A stretch of 63,465 bases of DNA, the filler included, from Dugesia japonica (Eukaryota): the NCBI GenBank assembly GCA_001938525.1. It is 5 parts of 5 records of this genome, joined end to end, with 100 filler letters (N's around TTAATTAATTAA, not from the genome) between each part and the next. Parts side by side here need not be neighbours in the genome. Positions count along the whole stretch, not along the records: positions 17,209 to 33,266 come from MQRL01534479.1; 4 more parts are not named here. One strand, 5' to 3'. This document shows positions 1-31,584 of this stretch, piece after piece. Both the position numbers and the translations under genes were made by a program. Below the pieces are notes generated by a model. It saw only the letters and a program-made list of their open reading frames with translations, had not been told where the DNA came from and searched no databases. Every line of letters begins with the position of its first letter. Positions within the stretch are counted from its first letter, which is position 1.

Positions 1-774
1 AATTAGTTAGGGCGTAAAATTTGTTCAGTTTTTTTGTGAGAGTTTTGGTGTTGTTTTTAACTAAAATCAGGATTATTTTTATACGGTTTCTGATGCAACC
101 CGGCATCATTGTCATTGGGTACTATTTTTAACTTGAAATCTTGGATTTTTATTGGTGTTGGTGTCATGTTTCCAAANNNNNNNNNNNNNNNNNNNNNNNN
201 NNNNNNNNNNNNNNNNNNNNNNNNNNNNNNNNNNNNNNNNNNNNNNNNNNNNNNNNNNNNNNNNNNNNNNNNNNNNNNNNNNNNNNNNNNNNNNNNNNNN
301 NNNNNNNNNGATGGTGGTAAGATTTTCTTCTTAACAAATTTTAATGCTTCTTGTTATTTTCATTCTGAATTTTCTTACCCGGATTCTCACTGATTTTCCT
401 GAACGGAGTTATTTGGGTAAAACAGATTTTTTAACTAATTTTACTTCTTTTTATTTTAAAATTAATTAATATTTTTTCTGTTGATTGATTGTTTTCCCAT
501 AATGATTTTCTTGATTTTTATTATGAATTTACTAATTCTTTTGAATTCCAATACCGATGTAAGTTAGTTTTATGTCACCCGGTTTGTCATATCCATTTCC
601 AATTCTTTTCTAACAGTTATTTCATTATAATCTTCCTAGATCATAATTACTTTTCCTTTTTGGATTTCATTAAGGGTAAAAATAATCGTCCTGCCGTTCT
701 TCTATGCTGATTTTGGGTTTTATGCTTTATTACCTTCCTTTTTTTGTTTTTAAAACGATTGTTTCACCCCAACA
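1..774 (-). mobile_element. 5' part of long LTR (copy A), minus strand, running off the window start
   Basis: Reverse complement begins TGTTGGGGTGAAAC at 774, the same terminus as 13055. The rc of 60-175 (caccaataaaa...cccaatg...gggttgcatcagaaaccgtataaaa) matches the promoter at 22690-22780 (caccaatgaaa...gccaata...gggtgcattcggaaaccgtataaaa). Spans an N gap. Confidence 0.7.
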
Positions 775-1676
775 TATATATTAATCATAAAATGATAATT
801 TTTATTACTAATCTTAAATAATGTTTAAACTTCTCCTGACTCGATAATTGAATGAAATAAAATATCTTGATTATATAATGAAACGATAAAAGGTAATTAA
901 CCCTATGAGAAGTTGTGATAAACGCGAGGTGTTTCCTATCGAAAAGGAATTGTTTGTACATAAGGTTTTGGGTAACAATTCTAATATATAAGATATTTTT
1001 GTTTTAATGAATGTAACAATAAATTAGAGATTATGATTTGTCTTGAATTATTACTTTAGGAAATCGAATATAATTTTAGGATTATTAATAATTATAATTT
1101 CAATAAATCTGGTTAATATTTCGGGATACTTTTATTTAGTTACCATTTCTCTATTGTTAACTTATAGATATTTGTAATAATTAATTATTTTCGGTTAGAT
1201 AAAATATTTAAATTATGATTTTAATTATTATTTTTGATTAGTTTATTGATATTTTGAATAATTCTTTTGGTATTATGAAATGTTTTAATTAAATGTTTTC
1301 TGTTTAAATTTTGATAAGGAGCTCATCTTATAATATACTATTGATTAACAATATGATAATTGATTTTGATCGAGATTTTAAATAATGATTTAAACTGAGT
1401 GCTGTTACTTAAAACCTAGCTTAATAATAATAGACGCATAGCGAAGGAGGAAGTAGAATTCCCTGAAAACAATAAGATATGAAGTTGTCACCGAGGAATT
1501 CTAACTCCTGTTTCGCTGAAGTAATGAAAGGAGAGATCAATTGTAGAGTAAAGGAATTAACGATTTCATGCAACTGTTCATTATTTAAAGAGAAATTGTT
1601 TAGATGTCGAGAAGAATAAATATAGCAGAGGCCCCGAAATCGCTGAATAGATGATCGTTTACTTCCGGAAATTGTA

Positions 1677-2084
1677 ATGAGATTGCCGGTCCTATATGAT
1701 TCATGGGGTGAAGCAGGAACAGATCGAGACCCCTGGTGGGTAACTAAAGATAAAATACGAATAAAAGCCATCGAAATCCAGGAACAAAAAGAGGAGATAC
1801 TGAGGCTGAAAGCTCATGTTAAACAGTTACAAGAGCAGCTTAATGACCAGCAGAAGGATCGACAACAACAGAACACCGCACTAACAGATTTGTTGTCTCG
1901 GGCCAAGGATCATTTAAGACGAGCTCCAACCATCACGGATCGTCAAACGGTGCTGAAGAACAATCTCCTCACCCATAATCAGGCTAATAGAAGAATCTGG
2001 TAACAAATAGAACATGCGATGCCTGTGCTTACAGCCCATTTAGAGACGCTGGAGACAGAGGAGGTAGTGGAATTGGAAGTGTGA
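1677..2084 (+). pseudogene. Coiled-coil ORF in LTR copy D (in-frame stop at 2001-2003, frame continues to ..EEVVELEV*)
   Basis: Heptad-like IEIQEQKEEILRLKAHVKQLQEQLNDQQ; more GC-rich than the flanks. Confidence 0.45.
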
Positions 2085-2366
2085 TAATGTGTATTATTTA
2101 ATATATTTTGAAAATGTCGTTGTTAGCACTTACTGTGAATTCACATAAACTATAAATGATTTAAAATAACAGAATTAATTAAACGATAAACGATGCAAAT
2201 AAAATGTTTAAAACAAACAGGTCAAAGTAAATTGAAATATGATGAAATTAAATAATCCACTAAATAAAGCAGTTTTATCGAAGCAGCCACTCGAAACTAA
2301 ATTATTATAATCATAGCACATATTTGCAAATTAAATTAACATAAAAAATTCATGAATTATTTAGAT

Positions 2367-2714
2367 ATGTCAACCAGGATCACAAAACCTACAAGAGAAG
2401 AGTTGTTGATCAAACAGCAGAATACTCAGACAGAGATCAAGAGATTAAGGAAAGAGAATCGTAAATTGTGAGAGTTGGCAGGTGAAACTAAGATGAAGTT
2501 GTCCACATTGAAAGAAAAATTGAGTGTGGGTAGAAGAAGGGAACTCACACTCATAGCTAATAATCGGATGATGGCGGAAATTATTAAGGATTACGCCGAT
2601 CGAGAATCCGCAGTGCTAGGAAATGTTCGAATTCTATGGAGAGAGTATCATACTCAGAGCGTCAACGACCAAGAAGAAACCATCACGGATAAAACCATAT
2701 TCGGTTCACCATAA
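2367..2714 (+). pseudogene. Coiled-coil mini-ORF exon MSTRITKPTREELL...FGSP (one internal TGA)
   Basis: Acceptor ttatttAG at 2363-64, ATG at 2367, stop 2712-14, AATAAA 2725-30. Confidence 0.55.
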
Positions 2715-4376
2715 ACAGCGATTGAATAAATACTAATTGAGTTCAATGTTGTTTTCTTTCTCTTCGATTTAGAACGAAAATAAGAGGCAGTTTCAACCAG
2801 AACTTTCTGTCAGGAATGGGGGATCGTGATGTAAGAGAAGACATCACAAATTTCTGTGGTTACTAGGTATCATCCCCCAGACAATCGTTTCTTTTAAAAA
2901 CAATATAGCATTAAAAATTTAGATACGCAGGAGTGAATATAGTTAACATCAAAAACCTATTAACTCAACATATGTTTGATTTCAATTTAATTGTTCAAGT
3001 TTTTAAGAACTTATTCTACCACAGATTCACTTATCAGAATAACTCCACATCATTTGAAATAAATTGTGAATTTTTCTTTGATAAATTCCAATTCATACTT
3101 TTCTATGGGTGAAACACCAGATTGAAGAAGAAAATATAACCAGGGGCCCAAACGTTTGTCATTAAGAAAACGTAATATGATACGGAGGAGCTAATTAATA
3201 ATAATTTCGATTTCTGAAATAAAGTACACATAAATAATCGAAAAAAGATCAGAAGAAATACGGTAATGATCGGAAAGTGATAAAGATATAGTAAAAGTAA
3301 TAATAATCGACTGCAATTATGGAAATTATAATTTATATAAATGAAATATTACTAAATATAATTAAAAATAATGAAAGAAAATTAATAAATTATTTAAAAA
3401 AAGGAGAATTAATTATGAAAAAATACGAAAAAGACTGATAACTTGGCTCTAGAACAACAAAAATCATCATATTGAGTAACAATAATCGATGCTACTCCAT
3501 CAACAAAATCGCTCGCGTCGCCGTGATCTTTACTGTATTTATTATTAAAGTAGATAGTGATATTAATTTTATATTAATGATTCTATTATTCATATTAATA
3601 AAATATTACACGACGATTAATATCGTGATTAAATTCATTGTGAGTTATTCCCAATAATCAGAACTTGTTCATTGTGGTGTCCGAGATTATTTCTAATCAT
3701 CTTTTCCTTACTACGACTAAAATTATTAACAATTAGTAGGTCTATTCTTGCCACCGTACTCACTATAACCCTGACGTTTGCATCACATATACGGTCATAG
3801 ACATTAATTTTATTAAATGGCATGAATGTTCGAGGTCACTTGCTATCGTTAAATGCCATTTATTGTACATTTAAATTAATCCAATTTAACACTAATATTC
3901 TCCTTGAGTATGTAATTAATATTTCCTTCAGTGACTGATTAATTATGATTAGAATACTGATCATTATCATTGTTCGGCTAGCCCTATTCATTCGATATTA
4001 TCTCACTCTCATCTATAACTAACTCAATAAAACTCTATTATTCCGAGTCACATCTTTTATTGGTCGACACATAAGCGTTTATCTTGTTTATGTTATATTT
4101 AGTGAAATGGTTTACCAGACGAATAAATAATATCGCTACTGTCTTTATTATAATTGGTTGACTGTATTCCAATTACATCTTTTGAATTAAAGAAGAGTTT
4201 AGCTATGTCTATTTCACGGTTATGAATTCTTTGCTTTGATGTGTTATTGCGATAAATTAGCAGCACGCATCCCGTGCTCGAACTTACGAATTATATAAAA
4301 ATTCACTCCCCATTTGAGCTAGATAATTATTTTTGAGAACTTTATATTACTTTGTTTTTAATCTCTCACCATTTAG

Positions 4377-4589
4377 GATCACGCCTGCAGAATTGTGTAC
4401 CGCGTTGCGTTTAATTCGTAATGAGAGAAAGTCGGCCAGCCTAAATCTAATCATAGGCCATTTACTTTTCCCGAAACTAGTAGAGCATCCTGATAAAACA
4501 GACTTAACTGCATCGAGGAGAGGTTTCCGCTAAAATTTGCGGTTGATATGAATGATAACTAGTTTAATGATTATAATTTTTCGAATAAA
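4377..4589 (+). pseudogene. Cassette exon alpha, copy D (ATG decayed to ACG, frameshifted)
   Basis: PAELCTALRLIRNERKSASLNLIIGHLLFPKLVEHPDKTDL aligns with 24489 MSAELRKALRLVRKQRKTSQLRQLLAHILSRSKVEHPDETDL. Acceptor 4375-76, AATAAA 4584. Confidence 0.65.
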
Positions 4590-4658
4590 AATTGTTATTA
4601 GTGTTATTTGCTGCATATTTATCTATATTGACTTATAACTAATTATTGGTTTCTTCAG

Positions 4659-4989
4659 TGTCCGACTATCGCTGGCGTTTGGTTTTAGACGAAAATATGA
4701 ATCGAATGGTTTTCCAACGTCAACGAAATCTACATAACAGTTGTGCCGATATTTTAGCGGACCGTTCAAACGTGTCCCTCGCTAAAGAAGCCAAGCCTTG
4801 GCACCTCGATACCGTTGAGCGCCGCGCATATCAGAATTGGCCCACAAAAAGCCGGAAGAATACGAGAATGTCCATTCCCCTTCCTCACCTACTTCATCTG
4901 AACTAGAGGTGTTCATGGATGACTTGTTATGGAGTATTAGAAACTCCAATATTAAATCCTAATTTTTCTTGCTTTATTAGTTCAATAAA
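4659..4989 (+). pseudogene. Cassette exon beta, copy D
   Basis: cAG|TG TCC GAC TAT CGC TGG. SDYRWRLVLDENMNRMV..ILADRSNV..WHLDTVERRAY aligns with 24830 MDYVWEILLYVRTNKIV..VLRDNSNL..EWDAFERNTY. AATAAA 4984. Confidence 0.6.
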
Positions 4990-5171
4990 TCTTTATATTT
5001 AGTGTTCAAATAAGCGTTAATTAATTAAGATTTGTTTGATAGAGATTAGATTAAATACTTATGTTATTCGTTATTGAGATAAGTTTGTAAAAAATTGCGT
5101 TATGATAATACAGTATATACTCCTTATGATCTTAAATCGTCACCCTTGTTAATTTGTTTCTCTATCTTTAG

Positions 5172-5531
5172 TGAATTCTTCACGCCATCGATCCGTGGCT
5201 CATCCCAAGAAGGTGCGATACAATAGTGAGAATATATAATTTACCTGGGAGGTCTACTGCCACCTCCAACGCCAAAGTTAAGCGGTATAAAAAACGTTGT
5301 GCTGAATACCGTCTCAAAACAGAAGCCTCTAATATGCAGGAGAGAACTTAGAAAGGCCAGTTGGAAGACTTCACCAACATAATTCAGTCCTTACATGAGA
5401 AGGAAGGTAAATTAGTGACCAACATCATGTCATTACATAATCGCATTCCAATAGACACTCTCTACATCGATAAATCAACCCAAACTCTCACTCTCCAAAA
5501 CTGATGTTGAAATAGTGTAAAATGAAATAAA
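5172..5531 (+). pseudogene. Cassette exon gamma, copy D (coiled-coil, degenerate)
   Basis: tAG|TG AAT TCT TCA. AKVKRYKKRC...ERT*KGQLEDFTNIIQSLHEKEGKLVTNIMSLHNRIP..DKSTQT aligns with 25431 SKVKRYKTKC...DRVWKGQVESFTEIIRSSQDRENKLVDDILTLKEKIP..DKGIQA. AATAAA 5526. Confidence 0.7.
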
Positions 5532-5624
5532 ATTTTGTAGAATTAAACTCTCATTCCGGATTTATAACTTAAAATTTTTGAGCTTGTTCTTTTATAATTT
5601 AACTATGACTGATGAATAAATTGT

Positions 5625-12080: not shown

Positions 12081-15000
12081 TCAGATACTTTTTTTCTTGA
12101 TAAATATTGAGTGTAATTGACAACGTTCTCTGATAAGTTGTATATCATCTTTGGGTAAAGACTTGAGTCGGTCAAAATTCTCTAAATTGTTTAAAAAGGT
12201 GACAAAGAGTCCAACTGTCTCAGTTTTATCAGTTAGGCTGCCATTGTATTTGAAAAAATTGAAAACGTTGTCTAGTTCCAACTTTGCAAAGGAAGCCAAA
12301 TCATTTGAGAATCTTTGTATTCTGTTGATGATTTCGTTGGAGGTTTTGAGAACGTATTCTTCCATAATGGGATGTCCTTTATTAAAGGGATTTTTTGTCT
12401 TTGGTCTAAAGGTTGCTTCCGCATATGAGATAAATTTTGATTTGAGGTGGATGTCAGAACTTTCAGCTGTCAAATTGTTGGATTTGATAATTGAAGCAAC
12501 CCTTTTAGTANATGAGTATCTAGCTTTTTCAAAATTTGTTATGTCCAGAAGATATTCTAAATTCAATAGATGTAGCAGGATGTTAATTTCCCAAGGTTTG
12601 AATTTGTTACCATCTTGGCCTACGAGAAATTTGAGGAAGTCTTTGTTGATTGTTTTGATTAAACTAATAGTGAAGGTAGATGATTTGGAAGATTTCTGTT
12701 CAATGATCTTTAGGATTTTGAAGAGTACATTTTGATAGAATAGGTTTCTTGTATGACTATGATTTAAGAGATTGAAAATTTTAGATTTTGGAAATCTACT
12801 ATTTAATTCTTGATATTTTTTTACGTTTTCATAGGACATATATTTGTTATAGATATGTTTTTCGTTTGATACTTTTTCAGATATCTCTATTTGAGCATTT
12901 GCAGCAAGAGCGGATTTGTTGAAAAAATGCGTTTCTGTTTTATTTTTACCAACCTTCGGTTGGCGAAAACTTTTGGCATCTAAAATACTATGAGTATCTG
13001 ATAATAAAGAAACAAATTTCTCTTTATTTTCAGATATTTTTNANTTATTACATTTATTGGGGTGAAACATTTGAGAATGGAAAATAAACCAGCGATTAGG
13101 TACACCTGAAATTTAAAAGAATGTCACAAGAAAGAAAACGAAGAACACAGACAAAAGAAGGAGTTAGATCAGTTACCGAAAGGAATAATTGAAGAAAACA
13201 TCGAAATAAAGGAACTAAATATGGGAAATGATCCGCAACCTAGTGAGTTACAAAGGAAGAAAAGAAATGTTGGGAGACAAAAAGCGGACTGAGAGAACAA
13301 AGAAAGGAAAATTAATAACGTAAGAAAATAATTCATTAAATAAAAGAAAGAAAGTCAAAGGNNNNNNNNNNNNNNNNNNNNNNNNNNNNNNNNNNNNNNN
13401 NNNNNNNNNNNNNNNNNNNNNNNNNNNNNNNNNNNNNNNNNNNNNNNNNNNNNNNNNNNNNNNNTTTTGGAAGAAAATAAAATAAATAATTTATTTATTT
13501 AAATAAAATAAATCAAACCAATTAAAACAATTTAATTTTAAAAGAAAATTAAATATTTTGGGAAATATGGAAAAAAAGACAACTTTCCATGGCAAAAAAA
13601 TCAGCAAATAAAAACATTATGGTCCGGCAAAAATAGGAAATTTTAAAGATTCGAGTTAGAAAATCATAACGAGACTCAGAAAAAAGATACAAGGGTTTGA
13701 AGATGGACCAATAACTTTGGAATCCTAAAATAACCAACCATAAAATGAACTCATGTGATGTTCAAGCCAATAGAAACATTAGAAAAATCGTATGATGTTA
13801 AGTAACCAATGAAAGGAACGAGGGTGTAAAGAAAAACAGTATAAATACCATTTTAATTTCAGAAAAAAACTATTCATAAAAATTTCCTAAGCGAAAACTG
13901 AAAACAAAGTCGATCAAAAAACTTTTGAAACCAGACGTTAAACAACTTCAACTACAATTATTACTTAAAGGTAACCTCTTATTACCTGATTTCTACAATG
14001 GTTTCCGACTCAAAAGAATCTATCAGAAAATAATTGAAGAAGTGAATCATGAAATGATTCCCTATGTGCTTGCTCCAGATCGATATTGCAGTCCACGCTA
14101 GTTTTTAGTTTTATTGATGTAATTTTAAGTTAGTGTGTAATGGATGGAATTAGTAATATAACTTTCCATAACCATATTTCTTTTATTTAATATAGTTTTA
14201 TCTTAATTCTTTTGTTAAACTGATACCTTTAATTAGAACTAAAATGAGCTCACCTCGTTANNNNNNNNNNNNTATGTAGAATGATAAGTTAAAAATGTTC
14301 ATTAATGTATCTCCAGTAAAACAAAACTGGAATTTTAATATGGTTTTTCTCGGTTAATTTAACTCCAATCTTAGAAAACTTATAATTAATTCCGATAAAA
14401 ACTAGATAAAATGGTAAAGCCAACTAAACGACTCATAAAATGTACTGAACAATATAAGGACTACTAAGAAAGTAAGCAATATAAATCAAGTATGATTTAA
14501 AAATCACGCGAGTATCACGAAGTATAACATAAAGCAAAGGAATGCGAGTCTGTACTCGGACTCCGAGTCAACAGCTCCATTTAGAAGATCTGGAATTTTG
14601 AGGACACCAGATTAAATTCTTCGCGGGGTTTTACTAGGCCCTAGACTAAACTTTCTAAAGGATTAATCCACCTAGGTAAAACCCCAACACATTTTTCAGA
14701 TATTTTTGAAGTTGTATAGCTCGATACAAAAGCATTTGATTAGTTGAACAAATATTTTCTTGTTTCACGAGTTATCTTCGTTTCTTATAAATTAAGGGGA
14801 ATGGTGAACCCGAATTAAAGGTACGCGAGTGTGAACTCCAAATAAGCGTTGGGAGTCAACGACTCTATACCGAAAACCTAAATGAGGGACTTTAGGTAAA
14901 TTCTTCAAAGGGACCCCTGAGAGCTGTCTTTTCCACCAGCCATATTTTTCAATCACTAACTCAGGTGGAACCACAACACGTTTATATTGCTTTGATGTCA

Positions 15001-17208: not shown

Positions 17209-17275
<67 letters not shown>

Positions 17276-17627: not shown

Positions 17628-17694
<67 letters not shown>
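17209..17694. repeat. (AAT)n microsatellite containing an inverted Penelope-type terminal repeat pair
   Basis: AAT tracts at 17209-17274 and 17505-17694 flank a ~165-bp near-perfect palindrome at 17340-17504. Confidence 0.8.
17430..17465 (+). ncRNA. Degenerate minimal type I hammerhead ribozyme motif (Penelope pLTR)
   Basis: attc-CTGAcat-agac-aag-gtc-GAAA-tatc-gaat. Sister copies (28030-28055 -, 34410-34437 -, 39280-39305 -, 39323-39353 +, 44795-44823 -, 45921-45955 +) give the consensus attcCTGAnGAAGAC..GTCGAAA....GAAT. Confidence 0.55.
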
Positions 17695-17695
<1 letters not shown>

Positions 17696-18599
17696 TTACC
17701 TCACCATCACAGCTGAGTAAGTTTGAAATGGATGAAATGCACGAATAGCATATCGATGGAGCGGTGTAACTCTTATAAAAAACATAAGAAAAATAAAATA
17801 AAATAATAAAAAAAATTGATTTTTACAATTTTAATAATTATGTGCAAGTAAGTATAAATTTTATATTTTCGTAAAATTCTAGTTAATTTAATTTGACAGT
17901 CAATCATATTAAAACAGCCACAAATTATCTGTTATCTCCAGAAAACAGTATGTGCATGTTTATATCAACAAATCTAAAAACTGGAATGTTAAAGTTGAAA
18001 ATTTCCTATTAATAATTATTGAAACATAAATAATAGAATGTCAAAAACAATGAATATATTCATTTATCGTGTTTAACTATTCAATTAGAATGAACAATTT
18101 CTCTAATTAAATATTTGATGACAGAACGATGTGGAATGGCATATATGAAATGTGTAATATGTGCACAACAATCAAATAAAATGTAAACAAAAGTAAATCA
18201 TGGAAACTTATTATTTTTTATAAAAAATCATTAACTAGAATAATTTTTTTCCAATTATATAAAGTGATAAAAAGAAATTCAGAGTGAAATCTTCTGATGA
18301 AGCAATCAAATCATTATAAAGGAAATAGCAAATAAAATTAGTATTTATTTAGTATATTTATATAGTATTTTTATAGTGTATTTATATTTATATAGTATAA
18401 AATACTAATTTCAATTAGTATTTTATTTGATAAACATGACTAAACTTGTCTAGAATTCCTCTACAGGAAGACAATAATATTCGACCAATCCATGCAAAAG
18501 TAAAATATCAAAAATCAAAATGCAAAGAAAGTAATATTGGCTTGTAAAGTTCAAAACACACTTCCAAAAATGAAAATATTGAGAACACGTGTCTCAATA

Positions 18600-19420
18600 T
18601 TGGAGTAATATTTTACAATGTGGTTTTCGACATTTAGTTTTAATATTTCAATTTAATATTTTGCGTTTAATAATTTCGTGTTTTCTATAATTGGGAGGTG
18701 CAGAAACTCATATTCGACATTGTTTGTTATACGAGTTCAGGAAAGGATCAACTACCTTTAGTGAGAACTTTGATCTATTTGAAAGTAGAGACTAAAGTTC
18801 TTCAAATTTGGACTTTTATTGAAGAAGACCCAGAGTTTACAACACTCGAATAGGAAGATCGCTTACAGGTCTCTCACGCCACCATTGCCACTCATATTTA
18901 TCAATTAAGTAACGTGAATAAAGAAAGGTCATGGGTTCCTCAATGCTTGTGTGTAAGCAAAAAACACAAAATTCTTTCATTTGTTCATCCATAATCTCTA
19001 TGTTCAAAAAACCTTTCTCAAACGAATTGCGACATGAGATAAAAAGTGGATGCTTTATGTTAATATTAAAAGATAAAAGGAGTAGTTAACACCTGGTCAG
19101 AAACCAATATCTACAGGTAAACAGGACTTCATCCTCGCCGGATAATGATGTCTGTTTGGTAAGATTATTGTAGTGTCATATATCTTTAATTATTACCACA
19201 AAACATTTATCTCAGGAAACATCTACTACGATCATTTCGGAAAACTGGGGGCTGAATTGAAAAATACAAGACCTGATCAATAGAAAGAATGTCATCATCC
19301 AACATGACAACGTCAGGACCCATACTTTAAAACTCACACTGCAAATAATTAGAAAATTAAAATGAGAAGTTTTTCCTTATCCAGCATACTCAAATAATCA
19401 AACTTGTATTTTCCAATTCA
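18600..19420 (+). mobile_element. Mariner transposase pseudogene
   Basis: WVPQCL (WVPHEL), KRIAT*DKKWMLYVN (TGDEKW), GLHPRRIMMSVW, IIQHDNVRTHT, EVFPYPAYS. Confidence 0.8.
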
Positions 19421-20032
19421 TCACTTGAATTAATATCCATCCCAAACCCTTAATAAATAAAAAATTATGTTTATATTTATGATTATATTTATATTTATGT
19501 TCATTGTGTAACAGCTCGTTTTCACCATTTTTTACAGAAAAATAATAATTTGCACCTCCAAATATAAGAAATTTAACAGCTAGCTTTGGATTATTTGATT
19601 AAGAGTGTTAAATTCTCAAACAATCCCAAATTCAAAATAATCAATTAATTGTTTGACAATTGACAATATTATTTATTCTGTGATCCCCTTGTAACGATTT
19701 TTATCTATTATTCACTATAATTTATTTTTAATTTTGTTATTTATTGATTTTAAATTGTTTGTATTGAAATTATTGATAGTTATTTCATTTTAAATAGTTA
19801 TGATTCTGATTTTGATTTGATTTATTGATTTTTAGGAATTGATTTTGATTATATTTTACTTTATATTTTTAATTAATTAATTGTTAATTATCTCCAATTT
19901 AGGTTAATTAGTTTGTCCTAAATTGGAGGTAATGAATTTTTATGTATGTGAATTTATCTTTGTTATTTTTATTTTTTTAATTGAATTAATTTCTGACCTT
20001 TCTGAGGAGATCTGATGAAACCCACTCTAGGT

Positions 20033-20301
20033 CAGGGGTGCACAATTTTTTTCTAGACCGTCCGCAAACATCAATTTAAATCAATATCGTCGGCCCTGCA
20101 TGCAAAAGTTTTGTGCATATATTATAGGTACTATACTATACTATATAACTTGGAAAATTTAATATAGCACTGTTAAAGAGTCATTTTGCATCAAGTATTT
20201 TGGAGGAGATCCTTGTAAATCTGTGAAATATTTATTGTATAGAATTACATTTTGGATTTTTTTATGTACTTGGGTTGCGGGTCGTATGTTGTGCACGCCT
20301 G
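20033..20301. mobile_element. hAT MITE
   Basis: TIRs caggggtgcacaa / ttgtgcacgcctg; 8-bp TSD ctctaggt/ctctaggc. Confidence 0.85.
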
Positions 20302-21011
20302 CTCTAGGCTCATATCAAACACATACAGATAATAAATTTTTTTAGTAATCCTAGAATCCTAAAAAACATTTTATTTGAACTTTTTTATGGATTTATTGTG
20401 GTTAGGTACTATTATTTATATTAAGTGAATTGAGTGAATAATTTAAATTCAAGTATAATGGTCTGATGTAACTCGTCGAAAACAGGAATTAAATGAAAAA
20501 ACTCAAAAAGAAAACAGTTTCATTATAGCAGAGTTTTAATCAAAGTCTACAGCAATCAGAATAAGAAACGTTGATAATCAAATTAATAAAAGATTTATCA
20601 AACTCAATATGAAACTCAATCAATAAACAAACTAATTTAATTTCGATATTAATCGTTAATGTTATAATGATTATTATTAAGGTTGCACCCCACTTGTGAT
20701 GTAAACATGTATTTGTGAAATGAAATCAATTGATAAAAAATATATTAGATAAATTAAAATAATTTCCATTTAATTGAATTTGTAGACATTTAATTTAAAA
20801 TTATCCACTAGAAAAACGTCTCCTGAGCTTATGTTAGACGGCTCCGCTAACTACTGATCAAATACTGATAATTCCCATTTGGATGAAAATTTGTTTAGTC
20901 GTTCGATCTGCAATAAATTTCTAATTTAGGGTTTTTACAAAATAGATTCAAATAGTGTCTGCATGTCTTAATCGATATTTAAATGATAATTATTTTTATT
21001 ATTATGTTATG

Positions 21012-21012
<1 letters not shown>

Positions 21013-21077
<65 letters not shown>

Positions 21078-21127
21078 NNNNNNNNNNNNNNNNNNNNNNN
21101 NNNNNNNNNNNNNNNNNNNNNNNNNNN

Positions 21128-21195
<68 letters not shown>
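21013..21195. repeat. (AAT)n microsatellite
   Basis: Pure AAT repeat on both sides of a gap. Confidence 0.95.
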
Positions 21196-21446
21196 TACTT
21201 TGGTTGACAATATCGCAAGTCTCAATAAATATTTCTTTAACCACAAATTGTTTTGGTTTATGTTGAAAGTTAAAAATGATGAATATTCAAACAAATTAAT
21301 TCTCATTAATATTTTAATGAAAAAGTGTTTTAAAACATAACCAATCTACTTTAAAATTTCAATATTTAAAATCTTTCTTAATATATTTTACACAAAATAT
21401 ATTTTAATATATACTCAATAATTTTAATTTTCGATAATAATTTTAA

Positions 21447-21635
21447 CACGTTCACTGCCAACTACGAGAAAAACCTCGTATAAGATGTTTCATTTATTGT
21501 AAAATGATTATTCTTTTTGTAATTACGTATGAGACTGTTAGTTGAAAATATATGATATTTATTTCAAAGATTAATATTTATATTCGATGTGACTTGCAGG
21601 TAAAAAATATAAAATTGTGTGTTGCAGCGAATGTG
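21447..21635. mobile_element. piggyBac-like MITE
   Basis: TTAA on both sides; TIRs cacgttcactgccaac / gttgcagcgaatgtg. Confidence 0.7.
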
Positions 21636-22137
21636 TTAATTAATATTTTCAAAATCGACAATTGAAGAAATGCCAAAAATAAATACTAAAGAATTTTAAT
21701 TACAAATGTTAACAAACAATAATAATTTAAAGCTAATCTATAAAATTGAAAAATTTCATATGGCCAGAGCTATTTCTTACAATAATAATCATCTTATACA
21801 TACAAAATATTTTTATGAATTAACCTACTCTGATAGAGGTTTTATTGATCATATTGATGCTTCTATTCATAGAACGTTGGTTACCCAGGCCGCATAGTTC
21901 TGTAAGATCACGAACATTAGTGTCAAAATACGCTACACTATTGTCTTTACAAATACAATCGATCTCAATAAGTTCGATTGTTACCGGACACTCTGAAATG
22001 TAAATAATATATTCAAACTGCAAAATATTATAAAATTGATTATCAAAATAACACAAACATTTCATTAATAATCAATTAAAATTAATAGATGGGTGGTAAC
22101 AAGCTTTACCAAAATTAAATATTAAATTCGTTTAAAT

Positions 22138-22441
22138 TAGGCCTGGCCAACACGTGCCCAACGTAATTTTTTTCTGACACTAATTTCTTTTTTTTTTTAA
22201 AAATATATTAAATGAAAATTGATGTGTTTCCTTGTTTTTCATGTGAATATATTTTTTCTAATGTAAAAAAATTTTAAAATATATATTCATACAATTTTTT
22301 CTTTTAAAAATAATAAAAAAAATTTTAGATTTTGGATATTACTTACTAAATTTAAAAAAACATTTATTTAAACTTATTATTTTATTTTATTTATTTATTA
22401 AATAAAATTACACGTGAAGCCATTTAGGTTGACCAGGCCTG
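22138..22441. mobile_element. hAT MITE
   Basis: TIRs taggcctggccaac / gttgaccaggcctg; perfect 8-bp TSD gtttaaat. Confidence 0.85.
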
Positions 22442-22689
22442 GTTTAAATCATATACAGTTATCCCTCGTATAACGCGATAAAAAATCTCCAATTTGGAAG
22501 TAATTATAAATAAAGCCTAGTAAAGTTAATTCTCTATAAACAGTGCATTACACAGGGTTCTTGGTGAGCGTTATATAGGAGTACTTCTATAACGCGTTTA
22601 CCAAAAAAACTAAGGAATGACAATCACATGTCACTACAAAAATAGCTACCAACAGAATCTCTAAAAATATGTAAAAATTTCAGAAAACT

Positions 22690-22785
22690 GGCACCGACAC
22701 CAATGAAAATTGAGTGCTTTAAACTAAAAATAACCAGCCAATACAAAACAAATTGGGTGCATTCGGAAACCGTATAAAAGCCAAG
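22690..22785 (+). promoter_or_regulatory. LTR promoter: two CCAAT boxes and TATA box
   Basis: caccaatg, gccaata and ccgTATAAAAg, with spacing conserved in copy A (rc 77-175) and a similar layout in copy B (13706-13846). Confidence 0.6.
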
Positions 22786-23248
22786 TGAAAAACACACGAA
22801 AAAAACAACAAAAAATTTACCATTTATCTCTGCTTAGCTAATATAGTAACTTTGTGAAATTTCTAATTCAATTACTCAATCAGAAATATAACTATCGATT
22901 AGTAAGTTCACATTCGAATAAACCAGTATTTGACAATATTATTCCGATTTCTAGTAAAGAAGTGTTGCTACTCACAGTAGCAAGAAGAACGACAGGAGAA
23001 ATTTTCTAACAGATTAATCAAAGTTAATTACCCACTAAACCCGTTGCAGTTAGTTCTATTCTTGACAGTAAGCCTATGTTTATTTTATATCTAGTTAATT
23101 GTATGTCATGAATGTTGAATAATTTAACAAAATATAAAGAATTAAAATCGCCACTTTACTGCGTTATGATTTTGTTTATTCCGTTATGTAATGTAACCAA
23201 ACATTAAATTATTAATAATATGCTCTTCACAAATACCTGTTTCGACAG

Positions 23249-24320
23249 TGATTGTTTTAGGTCCAGATCACAACGTGTACGATCTCATAAACTGCCGTGA
23301 GTATGAGAAGGAAATGTACACCCCAAAATACTGGTGAGTGCGGATATGTGAGATTAATTTCATTATAATTCTACATCTATTTTTTTATCAGAGACCAGAT
23401 GGCAATAATCTATGATTTTGAGCAGTGGTTAGAGAGAAAAGAATTTGCGATAATTGACCTCACAACATGCAAAATTGCACACCTACAATTAAGGCCTGAC
23501 AGTCGCACGTATCATTTCTGGCTGTTTGCTATAGATTAATATTAAGCCTCCACAATCTATAGCGTACTACACAGCAGTCATATCGGTTTCACTCTAGAAA
23601 AAATTAAATAAGAAGCTTCTAGTGATGATACTATCAGGTTAATCAGGCTAACTAAGATTGAGTCATCAGTTATGTTTCATTCCCTAGATCGGAATTAGTT
23701 TAATGTCAACGCTAAGTATTCTTAATGCTATTTAATCTAAGTTCTTTTTAAGGAAATCTCCATTTCTACTAGTAAATCGGTTGGTATTAGCACTATTCTA
23801 GTAATATGACCAAATGTAGCAACTACTTCGTTATCAACAGATTCATTATTATGGCTGTCAGGATTTTTTACAGATACAGTACCACATTTCGTATTATCCT
23901 GAAGTCGTTTGCATTAATAATGAAATGACGGAGATTGTTAGTAGTATTTTCAGTAGTTAAATGGCGAGTGAAATTTGAATGTTTGCCCGTATTGTATTAG
24001 CTACACCCAGGTTATGGTCCAGTGATTCTCCTTTTTGTTTATCAATATTTGTGATGAGTATTATTAACCTCTTATTTTTAAAATTCTGAGAGTTACTATT
24101 GGGAATGTTGTTCTTCTCAGACAAATGGAACATGATATTATAGATATTGCCAATAAATTAGTTAATGCAGTTAAAGGTATTATTAACTGCACCCAGCTTA
24201 TTCCTAACACAGGTATCCCTATCATCCCGACCACTGGCATTATTAGGATTTATTATGACTAATATTATCAATATTGTTATTAATTCTTGGTATTACTATT
24301 ATTATTAATATTAATACCAT
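23249..24320 (+). pseudogene. First, longer cassette ORF of LTR copy C (has an internal intron at 23334-23391, multiple stops)
   Basis: cAG|TG ATT GTT TTA GGT CCA opens (M)IVLGPDHNVYDLINCREYEKEMYTPKY. After the gtgagt..tatcag intron the frame continues (junction codon TGA) DQMAIIYDFEQWLERKEFAIIDL. The 3' limit is uncertain. Confidence 0.45.
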
Positions 24321-24488
24321 GTGAGTAATATTATTATTATCATGGGAGTGACTAACCTAAGTTTACTTCCATCCTATTATTCATATACCAGTATAGTGAG
24401 CCATGGTAATCAGTCAGATAATTGTTTAATTGAATCAAATTATGAATATATCTACATTGCTCATTTTAATCTATAATAATTTTAGTTA

Positions 24489-24683
24489 ATGTCAGCAGAA
24501 TTACGAAAAGCACTACGTTTAGTCAGGAAACAACGTAAGACCTCTCAATTGAGGCAGTTATTGGCCCACATCTTGTCAAGGAGTAAGGTGGAACACCCCG
24601 ACGAGACAGATTTAGCGTGTCTAACTGAGATATTCCCACTGATAACCAATGTAGATTTAGATGATGAGGACATACTCTCTTAA
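24489..24683 (+). CDS. Cassette exon alpha, 64-aa microprotein (intact ORF)
   Basis: Acceptor tttAG 24484-85, ATG 24489, TAA, AATAAA 24712; homologue at 4377. Confidence 0.6.
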   Translation: MSAELRKALRLVRKQRKTSQLRQLLAHILSRSKVEHPDETDLACLTEIFPLITNVDLDDEDILS

Positions 24684-24829
24684 GGATTTTCGTTATATTA
24701 GAATCGGTTATAATAAATTTATATGAAAAGTGTTTGGTTTCTTTTATTTACAAAAAATTCTTTTTTTATTATAGGTATCACCTTCAATGTTATGTTAAAT
24801 TAAAGCATGTTTTCCTTTATTTATCAGAA

Positions 24830-25177
24830 ATGGATTATGTATGGGAAATCCTTCTCTACGTACGCACAAATAAAATCGTGTTAAACGTTATTACAATCCC
24901 CATGATCGAAATGAAGGGAGTGCTGCGAGATAATTCCAATCTGGCGCCCCTCGACGCTGATAACGAGCGCGAGTGGGATGCCTTCGAACGGAATACGTAC
25001 TACGAACGGAGAGGTCCCGATAGGACTCAGGAAGTGCTTCATCGAACTACTGTATTAAATCCAATAACCGGTGAGTCTACTAGCGAGTGGCGGGACGATC
25101 CGACGCTTTTACGCTTGTCAGCCGCACCCTTACCACCCAATCCTGGTGCAACTGCCGACATAGGTAACACACTATGA
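24830..25177 (+). CDS. Cassette exon beta, ~115-aa protein
   Basis: Acceptor tatcAG 24826-27, ATG 24830, AATAAA 25288; homologue at 4659. Confidence 0.6.
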   Translation: MDYVWEILLYVRTNKIVLNVITIPMIEMKGVLRDNSNLAPLDADNEREWDAFERNTYYERRGPDRTQEVLHRTTVLNPITGESTSEWRDDPTLLRLSAAPLPPNPGATADIGNTL

Positions 25178-25430
25178 GATCTGCAAAATAGCGCAAGCGG
25201 TGGATCAGCCGAGAATAATGCTCCCTATTCGGAAAATGGGGCGCACTAAATGTCAAGAAATCCTCTGACTTAATGTTTTATATGAATAATAAACTTGTAT
25301 GTAAATTGCAAATTAATTTAATTTTTTTCCTTTCATTATCATTGTTACTCCGTCAATGTGATGCGGATATTAAGATATTTTTTAGACTCGTAACTTAAGT
25401 TGATAACAGTCGTAATTCTTCTCGTTTTAG

Positions 25431-25786
25431 TGAACTCTTCGCTCAAGAAGTCATCTGCCCCAACTATGAAAATGCGAGACACCCAAGAGGACCAAGAAAT
25501 GACTTGGGACCTCTACCGGTTGGCCAAGAGGCGGTGGGAGGCTGAGATACCGAATTCCATAAGCAAGGTAAAACGCTATAAGACCAAATGTCTAACCTTT
25601 AAAAAGGAAGACGATTCACACAGCCAGGATCGAGTCTGGAAAGGGCAAGTTGAGTCTTTCACCGAGATAATCCGTTCCAGCCAGGACAGAGAGAATAAAC
25701 TGGTCGACGACATACTAACTCTAAAAGAAAAGATACCCCTCGCACCCCGTATGGGGGACAAAGGAATCCAGGCATCATGGCTGTGA
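25431..25786 (+). CDS. Cassette exon gamma, ~118-aa coiled-coil protein, predicted split start A|TG
   Basis: ttttAG|TG AAC TCT TCG; open to TGA 25786; AATAAA 25804; homologue at 5172. Confidence 0.6.
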
Positions 25787-25903
25787 ACTTTGTCCAATTC
25801 TTTAATAAATAATTTTTCGACTTAATTTTTCAGATGATTCTTGCATTTATATTCAATATATTACTTTAAGTAAAAAATAATAGATTAATGTCATCCTATT
25901 TAG

Positions 25904-26264
25904 TGCCACGAATAACCTTCCCCAATAGTCTAAAGCAATGTCACCGGATTATCCGACGATTATTATTAGAGCGTCACCTTAAATGCCGATCTGAGCGAGA
26001 GTTAATGAAACATCTCGCACAACGAAATAGGCTTATAAAAAACTAGATCTCATAGTTAAGAAACAGGGAGATCTAGCCGAACAAACGAGATAGCTCCTTC
26101 AAAATAAAATTGATTTTTTGAAAAGGTAAATTGCAGATTTATCTCGTCAGCTTGGTAATGCGTCCTGGGTACAATAAAACGACAGTGATGACGAAGCTGC
26201 GTTTAATTTTTTAGATGACGATCCCACCCAGCGGTTAGACCCGGGTGCTATGGATCTCATGTAG
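25904..26264 (+). pseudogene. Cassette exon delta (basic helical N-terminus, acidic tail), degenerate
   Basis: tattTAG|TG CCA CGA opens (M)PRITFPNSLKQCHRIIRRLLLERHLKCRSERELMKHLAQRNRLIKN*; tail DSDDEAAFNFLDDD..MDLM*; AATAAA 26332. Confidence 0.5.
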
Positions 26265-27964
26265 TGTGTTATAAAATATAAATTAGTTTTAAAGATTTGT
26301 TAATTGATTTTGAATATAACATAATAGGGAAAATAAAGAACCCAAATTAAAGGTGTACGAGTGTGAACCTCCCGTAAAGGTTGAAGGTCAACCGATCTAC
26401 ACCGAAGATCTAACTTAGGGGCGTTAGATTAAATTCTTGAGGGGGATCCCATGAGAGCCGTTTTCCCCGGCCAGCATTTCCTTTTCATTATCAACTCAGG
26501 TGGAACCCCAACATTATTATTATTATTATTAAAATTATAATTATAATTATAGTAAAATAGGCAAAATAAAACTTTAAATAAAATAAAATTAATAATGTGA
26601 CAAGCCAGAACAAAACATGAAATAATAATTAAGAATCATATGGGGAATAATAGCAAATTTGTAAATGAATTCTAAAATGAAAGAATAATAAAATTAGTAA
26701 AAGAATGCTTCAATTACTCAATTAAATAGTTCGAGGAATGGAAAATAATAGAGATATGAATGCATTAACGGTGGAATTGTAAAGATTTATAAAATTAGAT
26801 AAATAATAGAGTAGAAATACACAGAAACAATGAAGCAGAATCTAAAAGGATTTATAATATTAATTAAAATGAATTTATAATAATAATAATATATTAAAAA
26901 AAATAAATAAAATTACTTCGAAAATTGACGAGCCGACCAAAGTAAAAAATGAAAATGAACAACTATGTATTAATTATTTATTAACTGATTGACTGTTTGA
27001 AAAGAGTAAACAATGGGGTCTCAGTAGTTTTCGACATTCAATAAAGAACGTGAAAGGAAAGGAAACACCCATCAATCATCAAATCACAGAATAAACAAAA
27101 AAATCTCTTTTTAGTATGCATAGAGTAAAAAATAAGAAAATCGTTTAAAAATAAAATTAAATATTTTATATTATGGAAAAGAGTTAATTTAGTAAAAATA
27201 TTAATTATATATAAAATATCATGTATATAATAATATAAATAACTATGAACATAAAGATGTTCATAGATCAATTAAAGAGGTATAATATTAGATTGTAATA
27301 TTGAATAGGGGGTCAAGCAATGAAAATGTAAAAAAAGTGATAACTTTATAAAATAATATAAAAATTAAAAGTATTTGTTAATCAGGCTCAAAACTATTAT
27401 TAAACATGTCAAACTAGATTTTAATATTATTATGATGTACATAATAATGTAAATAGCCATGTTAATAAAATACAGTTATATTAATCTAAATATAACTTTT
27501 ATTAAAAAATTACTAAACGTAAATGGAAAAGGTATCATGACAAAGTTGTGAATAAACACAAGCAGGGATCATTTTAAAATAAAGATGTCAAAAATTAACA
27601 AATCTAAATCGGGGTTAATTATAATAATATTCACAAATCGTTTTAAAATTACGAGAAGTTATTCTTACAGATGATTTTTGGGTTTAGCATTATAGACGAA
27701 ATTGAGCAATTAAACTTAAAGGAAATAACAAAATAATATACCTAGTTAGTTTGAGGAAGATTATAGATTAGTGTTATTAACAATTTGAGTATTATAAAAT
27801 TATTGGGGGTCAAACCCGAGCCCGATAATTGAAATGAGAAATAGAAGTTAATGTGCGACCAATTAAATAGTAGTGTGATCAACTGATTTTATTGGTTCTT
27901 TGAACATTAAAATTTTATCCTTGCTTACATTTTATTTGAGAAATATTTTTATTGATCATTATGT

Positions 27965-28160
27965 AAAATTTCATTAAAATAAAGAAAAAGCTTCGATCAA
28001 AATAAAATGTATTTGTAAAGAAATTCAAATTTTTGACGATAGTCTTCTTCAGAAACATGACGACTTCTTGATAGATTCAACGCAATCGATCTTTGTTACT
28101 CAATTCTTTAGATTTTATCGAAATTTTATTGGTTTATTTTAATTATGAATTTTTATTTTT
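27965..28160. mobile_element. Penelope-type terminal repeat fragment
   Basis: aaagcttcgatcaaaata...gtaaagaaattcaaatt...gtcttcttcag is shared with 44735-44900 and with the rc of 45860-46010. Confidence 0.6.
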
Positions 28161-28959
28161 AAATTAACTCTCAAAAATTTTTTAATTAAATAGAAAAGTT
28201 TTTTATTAAATAGAAAAGTTTTTTAGATATTTAATTTTCAGTTGTGTTTTCATATAATTTTCATATATTAGAGATTTTTTAAAGTCTTTTTTTACATTAT
28301 AAAACTTTTATATATTAATGATTTTTAAAATTTTGATTAGATTATAATTTTTACATATTAGGAATTTTGAAATTTTTTTAACAATTATTATATTATAAAT
28401 AAAATTTTTAAATTTTGTATTTTTCTATGTAAAGTGTTGATTGTGATGTGTAAAAGTTGTAAGCAATTGATAAGCAATTGTAAATTATCATAAAATTTGG
28501 TGAAAGTGCTTGTACACTGTAAACCTTTTGTAGAAGAAATGAGGTTAGTTGTAGAGTTCTTTTATATATTTTGTTTATTGTGTGATTATTCGATTTGTAT
28601 TCCAGGTTTTTAGGCTTCTACATGGACCTTTGCCTGAGAGGGAACAGGTTTAATTTAAAGTAAAATAAAATGTGATTTAAAAAAAGGAGTTTTTAAGAGT
28701 TTAAAAAAAACTCATATTTGTAAATCATCGAAATCATCATTTCCTAAAATAATTTTAATTAATGTAATATTGATAATTATGGCCAATACGTTTTATCAGT
28801 ATTACAATAATTTAGGCTTGGAAAACATTTGTTTTATTATTCAGAATTGAAAAACTTTCAAGTGGATATTTTAAATAATAAATTTTAACGAATTAATTTA
28901 ATTATTTAAATTTAATTATTTTCACGATTTATGGAAAACGAAATTTATAAATCAGTAGC

Positions 28960-29640
28960 GGTTTACAGCTAACGTTGAACTAAATCTATTATCATCGAGA
29001 CTGCTTCATTATCAAAAGCTTTCATGCTTGAGGCTTGTAGATTTATGTCATTAGAAAAAGAAGATATCCGAAACACTTTGATAACTTTCTGACATGTCTG
29101 ATGATATACTTTAGATTAGGAATAAAGTTGGATACCATGTTGTCAGTCTATTCTTTGTCAATATCAAAATAATCACATTCTTCATTCTGATAATCAAACT
29201 CGTTTATTTCTACATCATTCATATTGTTCTTATAAGATACACTCTCTTGACTTTTGTTTATGACATCACAAACATATAAATGAATAGTATATGCTAAACA
29301 AACAATGTAAAGTATTCAACAAGACTCTTTTAACAGGTTTAATGAATTAGTTCGTGTTAATGCTCCCATTATCTCTAATTAAACCAAGAAACTGGGAAGC
29401 AGTCAAATAAAATTTAAATTTATGAATATTCAGTTTCTAAATGATCTCAATTTATCGAAGCTTATCGAAAAGCGGCCAGCTTTCTCTTTGCTATAATAAA
29501 ACTTGTTGGTGATATCACTTTTCACCTTTTGAAAATTTTGCATAAACAGAATCCAAACGTAACACAAAAAAGTCATATTTACATTGATCTCTCTCTTTTT
29601 GTACATTCCTTGCAAAAATTTGACGAATAGTTTATTGTGT
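28960..29640 (-). mobile_element. P-element/THAP9-like transposase C-terminal fragment, highly degenerate
   Basis: FLGLIRDNGSINTN*FIKPVKRVLL resembles FFG.IR..GG.NNNP...F....KRLL, followed by YII..VRKLSKC. Confidence 0.4.
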
Positions 29641-31017
29641 TATAATAGATCTAATAATTGTTTAACTCTATGTTAAATCAATTTATTACTTTCCATGTTA
29701 ATACAAAGTCTGAACATGAGTTGCCAGTGAAAAATAATTCTAAAATGAATCTTGAAAAATTGGTAATATGATGTGAGCATACAGATGTGGGCGGAGTTAG
29801 AGTAGAGAAATAAAATAAATTATATTCTAAAATACGGAAGATGATAAGTTCCTATAACCAAATATTTATGAAACCCGAAAGATGTTATAATCATTGTTGA
29901 CAATAGTAAGTTCATACTGGAAAATCAGATCTTATATTGAACATTAGCCAGCATAGAGATATTTTTACACATAAACTGGCACCTGAAGCTGGAAAGAAAG
30001 ATGATTTCAAGCGAATCCTAAGCTGCCCAATATCTTTCATTAAACATCTATGAGGTGTTAGTATAAATACTCCATGTAACTTAAGGATTTAAAATAAATT
30101 ACCGTGCACATACTTTTGCTTGATTAACATTAAACATAAACGCGGTTGAGAATTAATTATTCAATTTATCGCAGTTACTGTCCCTTGTTTCATGGGCAAA
30201 GCCTCTAACTAGAAAATGAAAGAGTTAAGCAATGACGATTCAATGAATTTGGAATTCCATCGATTCTATAGAAAGGTCCAGGCACGAATTAAGAGTGTTA
30301 TTACAATAAGTTGTTATTACAATCAATCGTCTAAATATTTTAATATGTTTGTAGTATACTTTCCGCTATTTTAATGTAGTCTATGACACAAAATATTCAA
30401 TTATTGTTTAAAATGTGGTTTATTGAGGACTAACTCTTACTATTGTAAGAAAAATTTACATAAAGAAATAATTATCTTCCAGATTTAAGTCAAAACCGTT
30501 TGCAAAAATATTATATCCTAATCTAAGACGTATCATTATTGTTAGATGAGTTTTCAGAACTCATAGGATTATCAACATTAAAATTCAACTCCATAAATTT
30601 ATTAAAATAAAAGCTATTCTTAACACTATTTGTTTATTCAAATAAATTAAAATTCTGTGTTTTCATTGGTGATCATTTTTCAAAATCGAAAACTGTAATT
30701 TATTTAAAATTAATTTAATTTATTTATTAAAAATTTAAGACAAATTTTCTTTCACGTTAAAAGTTTTATTTATTTAAAATTTTACTTTATTATCCAATCA
30801 ACATTTTTGAATTTTTTACATTGAAACTTAATTTATTTAAAATTAATTTAATTTACTTTATTTCAAAACATTTTATTTATTTATTTAAATTTTTCATCAA
30901 TACTTTAAATCTTTCTTTTAAACAAAAGATTTTAAAAATATGATCAAAAATCACACAAAAAAACCTTAAAATTTTGATATAAATTAACTAAATAAATTTT
31001 AATAAAACAAGGAAAAC

Positions 31018-31141
31018 AGTAGGTAGCTAGTAGCGCACTGGACCATTTTCCCCCAAGGTCATTGATCTAGTATACTAGATCAATGACCTTGGGAAAATTG
31101 ACCTTGACGGGGGGGATCCAGTGCGCTACTATCTACCTACT
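31018..31141. mobile_element. 124-bp fold-back mini-element with AGTAGGTAG termini (Polinton-like)
   Basis: TIRs agtaggtagctagtagcgcactgga / tccagtgcgctactatctacctact; perfect 42-bp internal palindrome 31052-31093; 6-bp flanks gaaaac/gaaacc. Confidence 0.7.
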
Positions 31142-31584
31142 GAAACCAAAACAATTTAAATAAAAAAATTATAAAAATTCAGTTGAAATGCAAATTATTT
31201 GGCAAAATTATTTCATTTGTTTGAGAAAACCGATTAAATTTTTTATCTTTCTTTTTAATAAATTTTCAATTGATTGAAATAATCTTTTAACCATAATTAC
31301 GCCCAGAGCAAATATAGTTGCACGAGTTTGGTATTTGGATACTGAGGGAACGCATTAATGGTTGTAGTTAAATTGATGCGCACCATTAATTGGCTAGTTG
31401 ATCGTTGTCAAGATATCATTGAAAAATCAAGAACTGAAAATTGTAATTAAAAGTTGAAAGAAAAAAGATCAATAAAAGATTGAAAGAATTTTTAAAAGTT
31501 TAAATATATATTACGGATATGCATAAGTTCACATCGTTTTAAGACGAATAATTTTCATTAATATTATTACAAATAACACAGTAC

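Follow-up and report, generated by a model that had tools for sequence, protein, structure and literature searches.

Can the first base of a start codon be supplied by a shared leader, and the other two by whichever exon is spliced to it? This question is raised by a 63,465-nt stretch of Dugesia japonica DNA (assembly GCA_001938525.1; five joined records), hereafter the window, along whose whole length all coordinates are counted. The window is AT-rich (20-37% GC, with 1290 N), and its MQRL01534479.1 part (17,209 to 33,266) contains copy C (22680..26513, plus strand), most likely, to judge from its sequence, a giant long terminal repeat (LTR) from which 5′ truncation has removed about 650 nt of the unique 3′ region (U3). 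A decayed relative, copy D (780..5600, plus strand), is most likely part of a diverged sister LTR. Both carry series of small open reading frames (ORFs), and an initial annotation had proposed that some of these acquire their start codons by splicing. The signals described below point to one ATG-free leader that is predicted to be cis-spliced to alternative last exons, its terminal A completing the AUG on exons that begin with TG, and we give this reading a probability of about 0.65.

Predicted leader, acceptors and reading frames

A TATA-like box at 22773..22779 (plus strand), also conserved in another LTR copy of the window (copy E), stands in a 370-nt region without ATG (22706..23075, plus strand). 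This region is the largest ATG-free gap in copy C and extends 8 nt beyond its GTAAGC donor (23068); of 2055 comparable windows of 371 nt, only 5 were likewise free of ATG, and shuffling gave P values of 0.0025-0.0045. Donor-like A|GT sites occur in it at 22846, 22902 and 23068. Both leader donors named in the initial annotation do follow an A, the last exon bases being 22901 and 23067 (introns from 22902 and 23068), and the third, weaker site at 22846 is likewise preceded by A. An internal acceptor candidate at 23013 (plus strand) would possibly make the leader a two-part one.

Five acceptor-like sites, 23249, 25431 and 25904 in copy C and 4659 and 5172 in copy D, consist of a pyrimidine-rich stretch, YAG and then TG, placed where AT-rich sequence gives way to GC-richer sequence. 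They had been described as AG|TG acceptors at which the long frame starts with TG, and this description held at each of them: all five read YAG|TG, and at every site neither of the other frames is as long as the one after the TG (28, 117, 46, 81 and 21 amino acids [aa] at 23249, 25431, 25904, 4659 and 5172, respectively). Among YAG acceptor-like sites with a GC step, TG follows at 5 of 12 in C and D and at 3 of 52 in the rest of the window (Fisher p 0.004; across the nine threshold pairs tried, values lay between 0.12 and 0.0003). When the GC filter was dropped, TG combined with a frame of at least 20 aa was present at 5 of 43 sites in C and D as against 6 of 422 elsewhere (p 0.0016). AG|TG as such is found at about 5% of the background acceptor-like sites (22/422).

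The frames behind these acceptors bear on spliced-leader (SL) trans-splicing, in which a flatworm SL would supply a complete AUG at these sites. All flatworm SLs reported end in ATG (PMC12582326), and one exon, alpha, would be in frame with such an SL. However, a cis leader with donors exists, and the +1 frame after the five TG acceptors runs for 0, 0, 3, 9 and 0 aa. Since a full AUG would thus give only 0-9 aa at the five sites, we reject trans-splicing as very unlikely.

The candidate exons of copy C all lie on the plus strand. Exons a (23249..23337; 28 codons after the TG, AATAAA absent within 400 nt), gamma (25431..25809; 117 codons, AATAAA at 25804) and delta (25904..26108; 46 codons, apparently broken near 26040, AATAAA at 26103) open at AG|TG. 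The others have an ATG of their own: exon a2 (23392..23539; 46 aa, ATTAAA 63 nt past the stop), a further candidate absent from the initial annotation (24121..24262; ATG at +4, 45 aa), exon alpha (24486..24717; 64 aa, AATAAA at 24712) and exon beta (24828..25293; AA and then its ATG, 115 aa, AATAAA at 25288). Copy D, whose leader would lie outside the window, contains exons at about 1400-2003 and at 2365-2714 (with a further AATAAA at 2725), followed on the same strand by alpha (4377-4533; AATAAA at 4584), beta (4659-4906; AG|TG, AATAAA at 4984) and gamma (5172-5504; AG|TG, interrupted by stops and a frame break, AATAAA at 5526). As had been claimed, exons other than the TG-exons have an ATG near the acceptor, at +2 after 2365, +3 after 24486 and +2 after 24828, and exon a2 adds a fourth case (+7 after 23392); D alpha has none close to its acceptor. 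Because the ATG of the non-TG exons sits 2-7 nt inside, an A-ending leader would serve both kinds of exon.

A second alternative is an upstream exon other than this leader, one that contains an AUG and is joined in phase 1, so that the products share an N-terminal peptide as in the ZAM/Beagle env. Short-peptide leaders are known for the env of insect endogenous retroviruses (PMC12992720), and the long frame is in the same phase in 7 of 10 exons (including 24828 and 2365, and excluding rival and speculative sites). Nevertheless, copy C has no ATG from the TATA box to the 23068 donor and copy E none in the 84 nt past its TATA box; because the leader is free of ATG up to the A|GT donor, no upstream AUG gives a shared N-terminus in copy C. 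Moreover, alpha and a2 are in other phases with their own ATG, and a shared peptide has no need of the TG. We consider this alternative quite improbable and retain the junction-made start codon.

An AATAAA lies within 120 nt of 8 of the 10 ORF ends in C and D, a count that excludes exon a, whereas shuffling leads one to expect 1.5 (P 1.5e-5) and the window-wide rate is 908/2927 (p 0.002); the reverse word TTTATT is near 2 of 10 only. The AATAAA offsets are similar between the copies (alpha 28/50, beta 110/77, gamma 17/21). Since AATAAA follows 8 of 10 ORF ends, each ORF looks like an alternative last exon, and the common ATG-free leader, the several acceptors and the poly(A) signals behind the ORFs together form an alternative-last-exon layout at the level of sequence signals.

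The predicted products are orphans as far as the searches went. None of the element ORFs scanned (28-117 aa) matched Pfam at the cut-off, and a search for homologues outside the window, which did not extend to a large representative-protein library, gave none for gamma (0/3 candidates), for the alpha alignment (0/2) or among pattern matches in viral contigs (0/40). The ESM Atlas returned only low-recognition matches for gamma and none for beta, and an Rfam scan of positions 1-27000 gave a single chance match (E 0.67). For gamma, two long helices are predicted at low confidence (mean predicted local distance difference test score 59.8, predicted template-modelling score 0.28), the model being too weak for a fold search. 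One metagenome match (L001) has a stretch of just 23 nt in common with copy C and was rejected as chance. The lack of homologues in these searches, together with the broken state of copy D and of delta, would suit an explanation without any splicing, by which a single long frame has decayed into the present ORFs and the apparent signals arose by chance in AT-rich DNA. This is hardly credible, given that in C and D alike, diverged as they are, the same ORFs stand between AT-rich spacers, acceptors and AATAAA.

Probable starts compared in two diverged copies

The order alpha-beta-gamma is kept in C and D, and protein identity is about 45-50%: 52% over 40 aa for alpha and 44% over 48 aa for gamma, while beta is weakly similar (25% over 56 aa, E 0.001). 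The DNA of the ORF-bearing regions no longer gives a blastn alignment. In the blocks compared, 62, 41 and 97 differences between C and D fall on codon positions 1, 2 and 3, respectively, a pattern that counts in favour of the reading. The middle spacers of C (23540-24400, minus strand) and D (2880-4330, minus strand) resemble decayed antisense coding sequence; a comparison of the two for a shared antisense ORF gave similarity scores at shuffle level.

Two exons, beta and gamma, bear on the site of initiation. Beta had been noted to start with A|TG in one copy and with its own ATG in the other in nearly the same register, and the register proves to be exactly the same: the first conserved codon lies 5 nt past the AG in both copies, the space being filled by TG and one codon in D and by AA and ATG in C. 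In gamma, the first three codons after the TG encode identical residues in C and D, both of the two differences being synonymous, and these codons lie upstream of the first in-frame ATG of C, an ATG that D lacks. The beta register and the gamma codons directly behind the TG both agree with a start at the junction.

The same comparison bears on the possibility that the exons are real alternative last exons whose translation begins at downstream in-frame ATGs, or at an unspliced GTG, the TG being due partly to chance and partly to descent. C gamma and D beta do have in-frame ATGs some 12 codons in, which could start shorter proteins, and AG|TG is not rare, as the background count given above and two occurrences in D without an ORF illustrate. 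However, such ATGs differ between the copies, whereas the codons right after the TG are common to both. Delta has no early in-frame ATG, and the own ATG of C beta is placed one codon past the position of the TG in D. We therefore think this alternative unlikely, and assembly of the start codon at the splice junction remains the reading that we favour.

A probable LTR family with and without the cassette

Several further fragments of the window share termini with copy C. B1 (13055..14689, plus strand) is a complete 1.6-kb solo LTR that runs from TATTGGGG to CCCCAACA and is flanked on both sides by the 4-bp target duplication CATT. B2 (14694..14978, plus strand) is the 3′ end of another LTR copy with a CCACAACA end, likely interrupted by B1. 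Copy E (1..774, minus strand) is the 5′ part of another copy; it has a TGTTGGGG start at 774, a U3-like stretch and a TATA box, and it runs off the window. Copy C ends in CCCCAACA, as does B1, and is likely to have measured about 4.5 kb when whole. Its last 176 nt match B2 (14806-14978) at 74% and align with B1 (14525-14689). The reverse complement of the ends, T(G/A)TTGGGG and then TGAAACA, opens E (774, minus strand) and B1 (13055). The terminal inverted repeat measures only 8-9 bp.

TG...CA ends with a short inverted repeat and a target duplication of 4-5 bp are among the criteria for a Ty3/gypsy LTR, which in a whole element would be one of two that flank a primer-binding site, gag-pol in the order RT-RH-IN and a polypurine tract. 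TG...CA ends are present in B1 and in the E, B2 and C termini (the 5′ end of C is missing), and the duplication is present at B1. The common termini and the CATT duplication of B1 amount to solo-LTR anatomy, and for this reason we read copy C as most likely an LTR. The conserved, U5-like 3′ end of C (26332..26513, plus strand) begins at its last AATAAA (26332), and this position suggests a repeated region (R) of about 3.5 kb and a unique 5′ region (U5) of about 170 nt. The pre-TATA stretch of E aligns with C 22683-22840 at a score of 81, against a shuffle mean of 49 (standard deviation 10, maximum 88 of 50); as 81 is below that maximum, the link between E and C rests also on common TATA-flanking words. 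The promoter alignment of B1 with C does not exceed shuffles (52 versus 48 +/- 7), and no homologues of alpha, beta or gamma were found in B1.

Taken as a whole, the unit might instead be a Ginger-like, non-autonomous DNA element, bounded by TG...CA termini and a target duplication of 4 bp, that carries the same spliced cassette. B1 stands alone with its 4-bp duplication, and neither gag-pol nor a primer-binding site was found in the window after C or B2. On the other side, the terminal inverted repeat is just 8-9 bp and the order promoter, leader, poly(A) signal and conserved 3′ end fits U3-R-U5; gypsy also makes up more than 90% of Dugesia LTR elements (10.64898/2025.12.11.693146). We judge a DNA element quite unlikely, and the split-codon claim is unaffected by the choice.

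Sequences of 4 of 24 listed runs were mapped on 22440-26940 at 85% likeness. The contig sets X1 and X3 cover 27/30 and 30/30 bins, respectively, and behave like DNA; no leader-exon joint was present in them among 15 listed of 17. On copy C, 3081 X3 contigs were placed across all 30 bins, and since 2249 of these are less than 95% alike, diverged copies of the family are numerous. The deepest X3 bins are those of gamma, of the LTR 3′ end and of a repeat beyond C, where another high-copy AT-rich repeat seems to start just past the LTR (26590-26940; deep X1 and X3 bins).

Other features of the window were recorded beside these copies. The 5′ end of C adjoins a DNA-transposon-like piece at about 22463-22660, and the place of its missing U3 (22140-22660) is presumably occupied by a miniature inverted-repeat-like element and a Tigger/pogo-like end. 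B1 lies directly before B2, is probably nested in it, and shares the ends of C without the ORF cassette; acceptor-like sites near 14240 and 14406 in B1 carry their own ATGs. A conserved RNA structure of the LTR 3′ ends (26338-26513, 14806-14978 and 14525-14689) was considered because, of its 37 pairs, 13 show changes in both partners across the three sequences; C alone gave z = 0.32 against shuffles, and we do not claim it. A 343-aa open frame that adjoins B1 (12081-13050, minus strand) has no Pfam match and no similarity to C or D. Two decayed non-LTR retrotransposons occupy 5800-7700 (minus strand) and 7860-12030 (plus strand); the former truncates the 3′ end of copy D, and the latter contains a reverse transcriptase match (10094-10369; Pfam RVT_1, E 1e-8). 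The two may hold protease-like and endonuclease-like motifs as well, and a short frame at 15387-15641 (plus strand), which has no Pfam match, presumably has integrase-core-like motifs. Elsewhere in the window are a single-exon rhodopsin-type G protein-coupled receptor (37184-38236, plus strand) with 70% identity to Schmidtea mediterranea GCR101, one of just two database homologues, a result that places the host among planarians though probably not in S. mediterranea itself; a host-gene exon with a BRCT domain (55973-56260, plus strand; Pfam BRCT_2, E 7e-7); and a 58-nt perfect-looking hairpin within a dispersed repeat (17365-17484; arms 95% complementary, 4-nt loop).

Weighing, mechanism and related systems

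A number of observations weigh against the junction-made start codon. Real donors usually end in G, and A is the commonest base before GTAAGY words in the window (17 of 32), so that the A before the leader donors carries little weight alone. The donor of B1 lies at TATA+131, close to the TATA+129 of C, but it ends in G (13971), a partial counter-case, as no ORF-bearing TG-exon was found in B1. The five sites represent four independent exon types, as 25431 and 5172 are homologous, and the borders of the elements used in the enrichment tests were set with the finding already known. Exon a is doubtful and the weakest case, its acceptor 23249 having a rival in the same phase 12 nt downstream (23261), and the AG|TG sites of D that lack an ORF behind them lie at 3932 and 5003. 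Only two ORF-bearing copies, C and D, were compared, and the blocks behind the codon-position counts were selected by protein similarity, which favours that result. The in-frame ATGs downstream in C gamma and D beta count on the same side, as does the failure to find gag-pol or a primer-binding site, which leaves the parent element unproven. Finally, the raw poly(A) runs X5 and X8 yielded 81 and 23 reads, all partly mapped and mostly less than 90% alike, with no splice joints, at zero depth over 22893-23194, so that the leader was barely covered and this search was blind to leader junctions.

If the reading is correct, transcription would begin some 30 nt downstream of the TATA box (22773), and the leader would end at 22901 or 23067, both of them A. 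The spliceosome would choose one of 5-7 downstream acceptors for each mRNA, and the AATAAA behind the chosen ORF would end that mRNA, giving alternative last exons. TG-exons would then start at the junction itself (A|UG), and the others at the ATG 2-7 nt inside. For full-length RNA to be made, the internal poly(A) signals would need to be bypassed; as in foamy viruses, the most likely means is U1 bound at the leader donor. Small helical accessory proteins are the probable products, and any LTR, solo LTRs included, could express them.

The proposal of the initial annotation had two parts, and they fared differently. Assembly of start codons by splicing is supported at the sequence level by the ATG-free leader, the beta register and the gamma codons, whereas the case for a silencing switch, active for as long as the RNA is unspliced, is weak. 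In unspliced RNA, 8 ATGs separate the leader from 23249 and 59 separate it from exon gamma at 25431, which would already keep scanning ribosomes away, and four own-ATG exons sit among the TG-exons. Most likely the split codon is an economy allowed by an A-ending leader, gained and lost exon by exon as in beta, and not a dedicated off-switch.

The predicted layout of copy C resembles that of the adenovirus major late unit, in which one promoter and one non-coding leader serve alternative acceptors and several poly(A) sites. The analogy is functional only, as adenovirus is a DNA virus with unrelated proteins and its leader does not enter the start codons. The closest precedent for the split codon is the env of the springer subclade of Drosophila Metaviridae, whose ORF is spliced to an AU dinucleotide so that the start reads AU|G (PMC12992720, 10.1101/2023.08.03.551782). 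There, too, a short upstream leader spliced to an ORF exon completes the start codon in a gypsy-type element. However, AU comes from the leader and G from the exon, whereas copy C is predicted to use A|UG; furthermore, the springer case concerns one F-type envelope ORF downstream of pol with junctions mapped by experiment, and copy C several orphan ORFs, apparently within the LTR, each with a poly(A) signal and with predicted junctions.

The obvious candidate for the parent of copy C, linked to it by description only, is Burro/GYPSM1, the giant gypsy elements of Dugesiidae, which exceed 30 kb in total with an internal part of up to 25 kb, implying very long LTRs (PMC6431247). These elements encode a Gag-Env-Pol polyprotein of about 4,900-5,100 aa with MATH, BIR and BCL2 domains. 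Planarian host, long LTRs and accessory ORFs are shared with copy C as far as descriptions can be compared, but the accessory ORFs of Burro/GYPSM1 are placed upstream of the polyprotein and the review, in its accessible part, describes no spliced LTR cassette (PMC6431247). In the foamy virus LTR, the major splice donor lies upstream of the poly(A) signal and U1 suppresses early polyadenylation (PMC3694450); the foamy virus R is short and without an ORF array, and in copy C such suppression is suggested by likeness. Small accessory ORFs near the gypsy 5′ end, sORF1 and sORF2, are found in the MDG1 group, where sORF1 is followed by an alternative poly(A) site (10.1101/2025.03.14.642691), but these transcripts are unspliced and each ORF has a start codon of its own, unlike what is predicted for copy C. 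In LTR elements at large, extra ORFs lie mostly between pol and the 3′ LTR (PMC7264820). A cassette of several exons within an LTR, with a poly(A) signal for each ORF and a shared split codon, was not found in the full-text literature searched, in which most subscription papers are missing, nor in the accessible parts of PMC8532177, PMC11410931 and 10.64898/2025.12.11.693146. Start codons completed at a splice junction have been described for gypsy-type elements, and what would be new here is a multi-exon version in an LTR, to the extent of the literature searched.

Planarians are rich in gypsy elements, whose repression is lifted tissue by tissue upon PIWI loss (PMC8532177), and for this reason the prediction is testable at once on existing long-read or knockdown RNA data. 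Tentatively, and at slightly less than even odds, we propose that the planarian giant LTR is a self-contained multi-gene unit, in which an A-ending leader would give the first start-codon base for 5-7 orphan accessory proteins encoded in a 3.5-kb R, so that every solo LTR could express them without gag-pol. If this is true, the great length of these LTRs would be explained, and a type of sequence generally regarded as regulatory and non-coding would here amount to a miniature genome with splicing of its own. It would be a rare case of several unrelated ORFs receiving their start codon from one leader. It would also point to a set of unannotated planarian proteins that escape gene finders, since the DNA itself does not contain their start codon.

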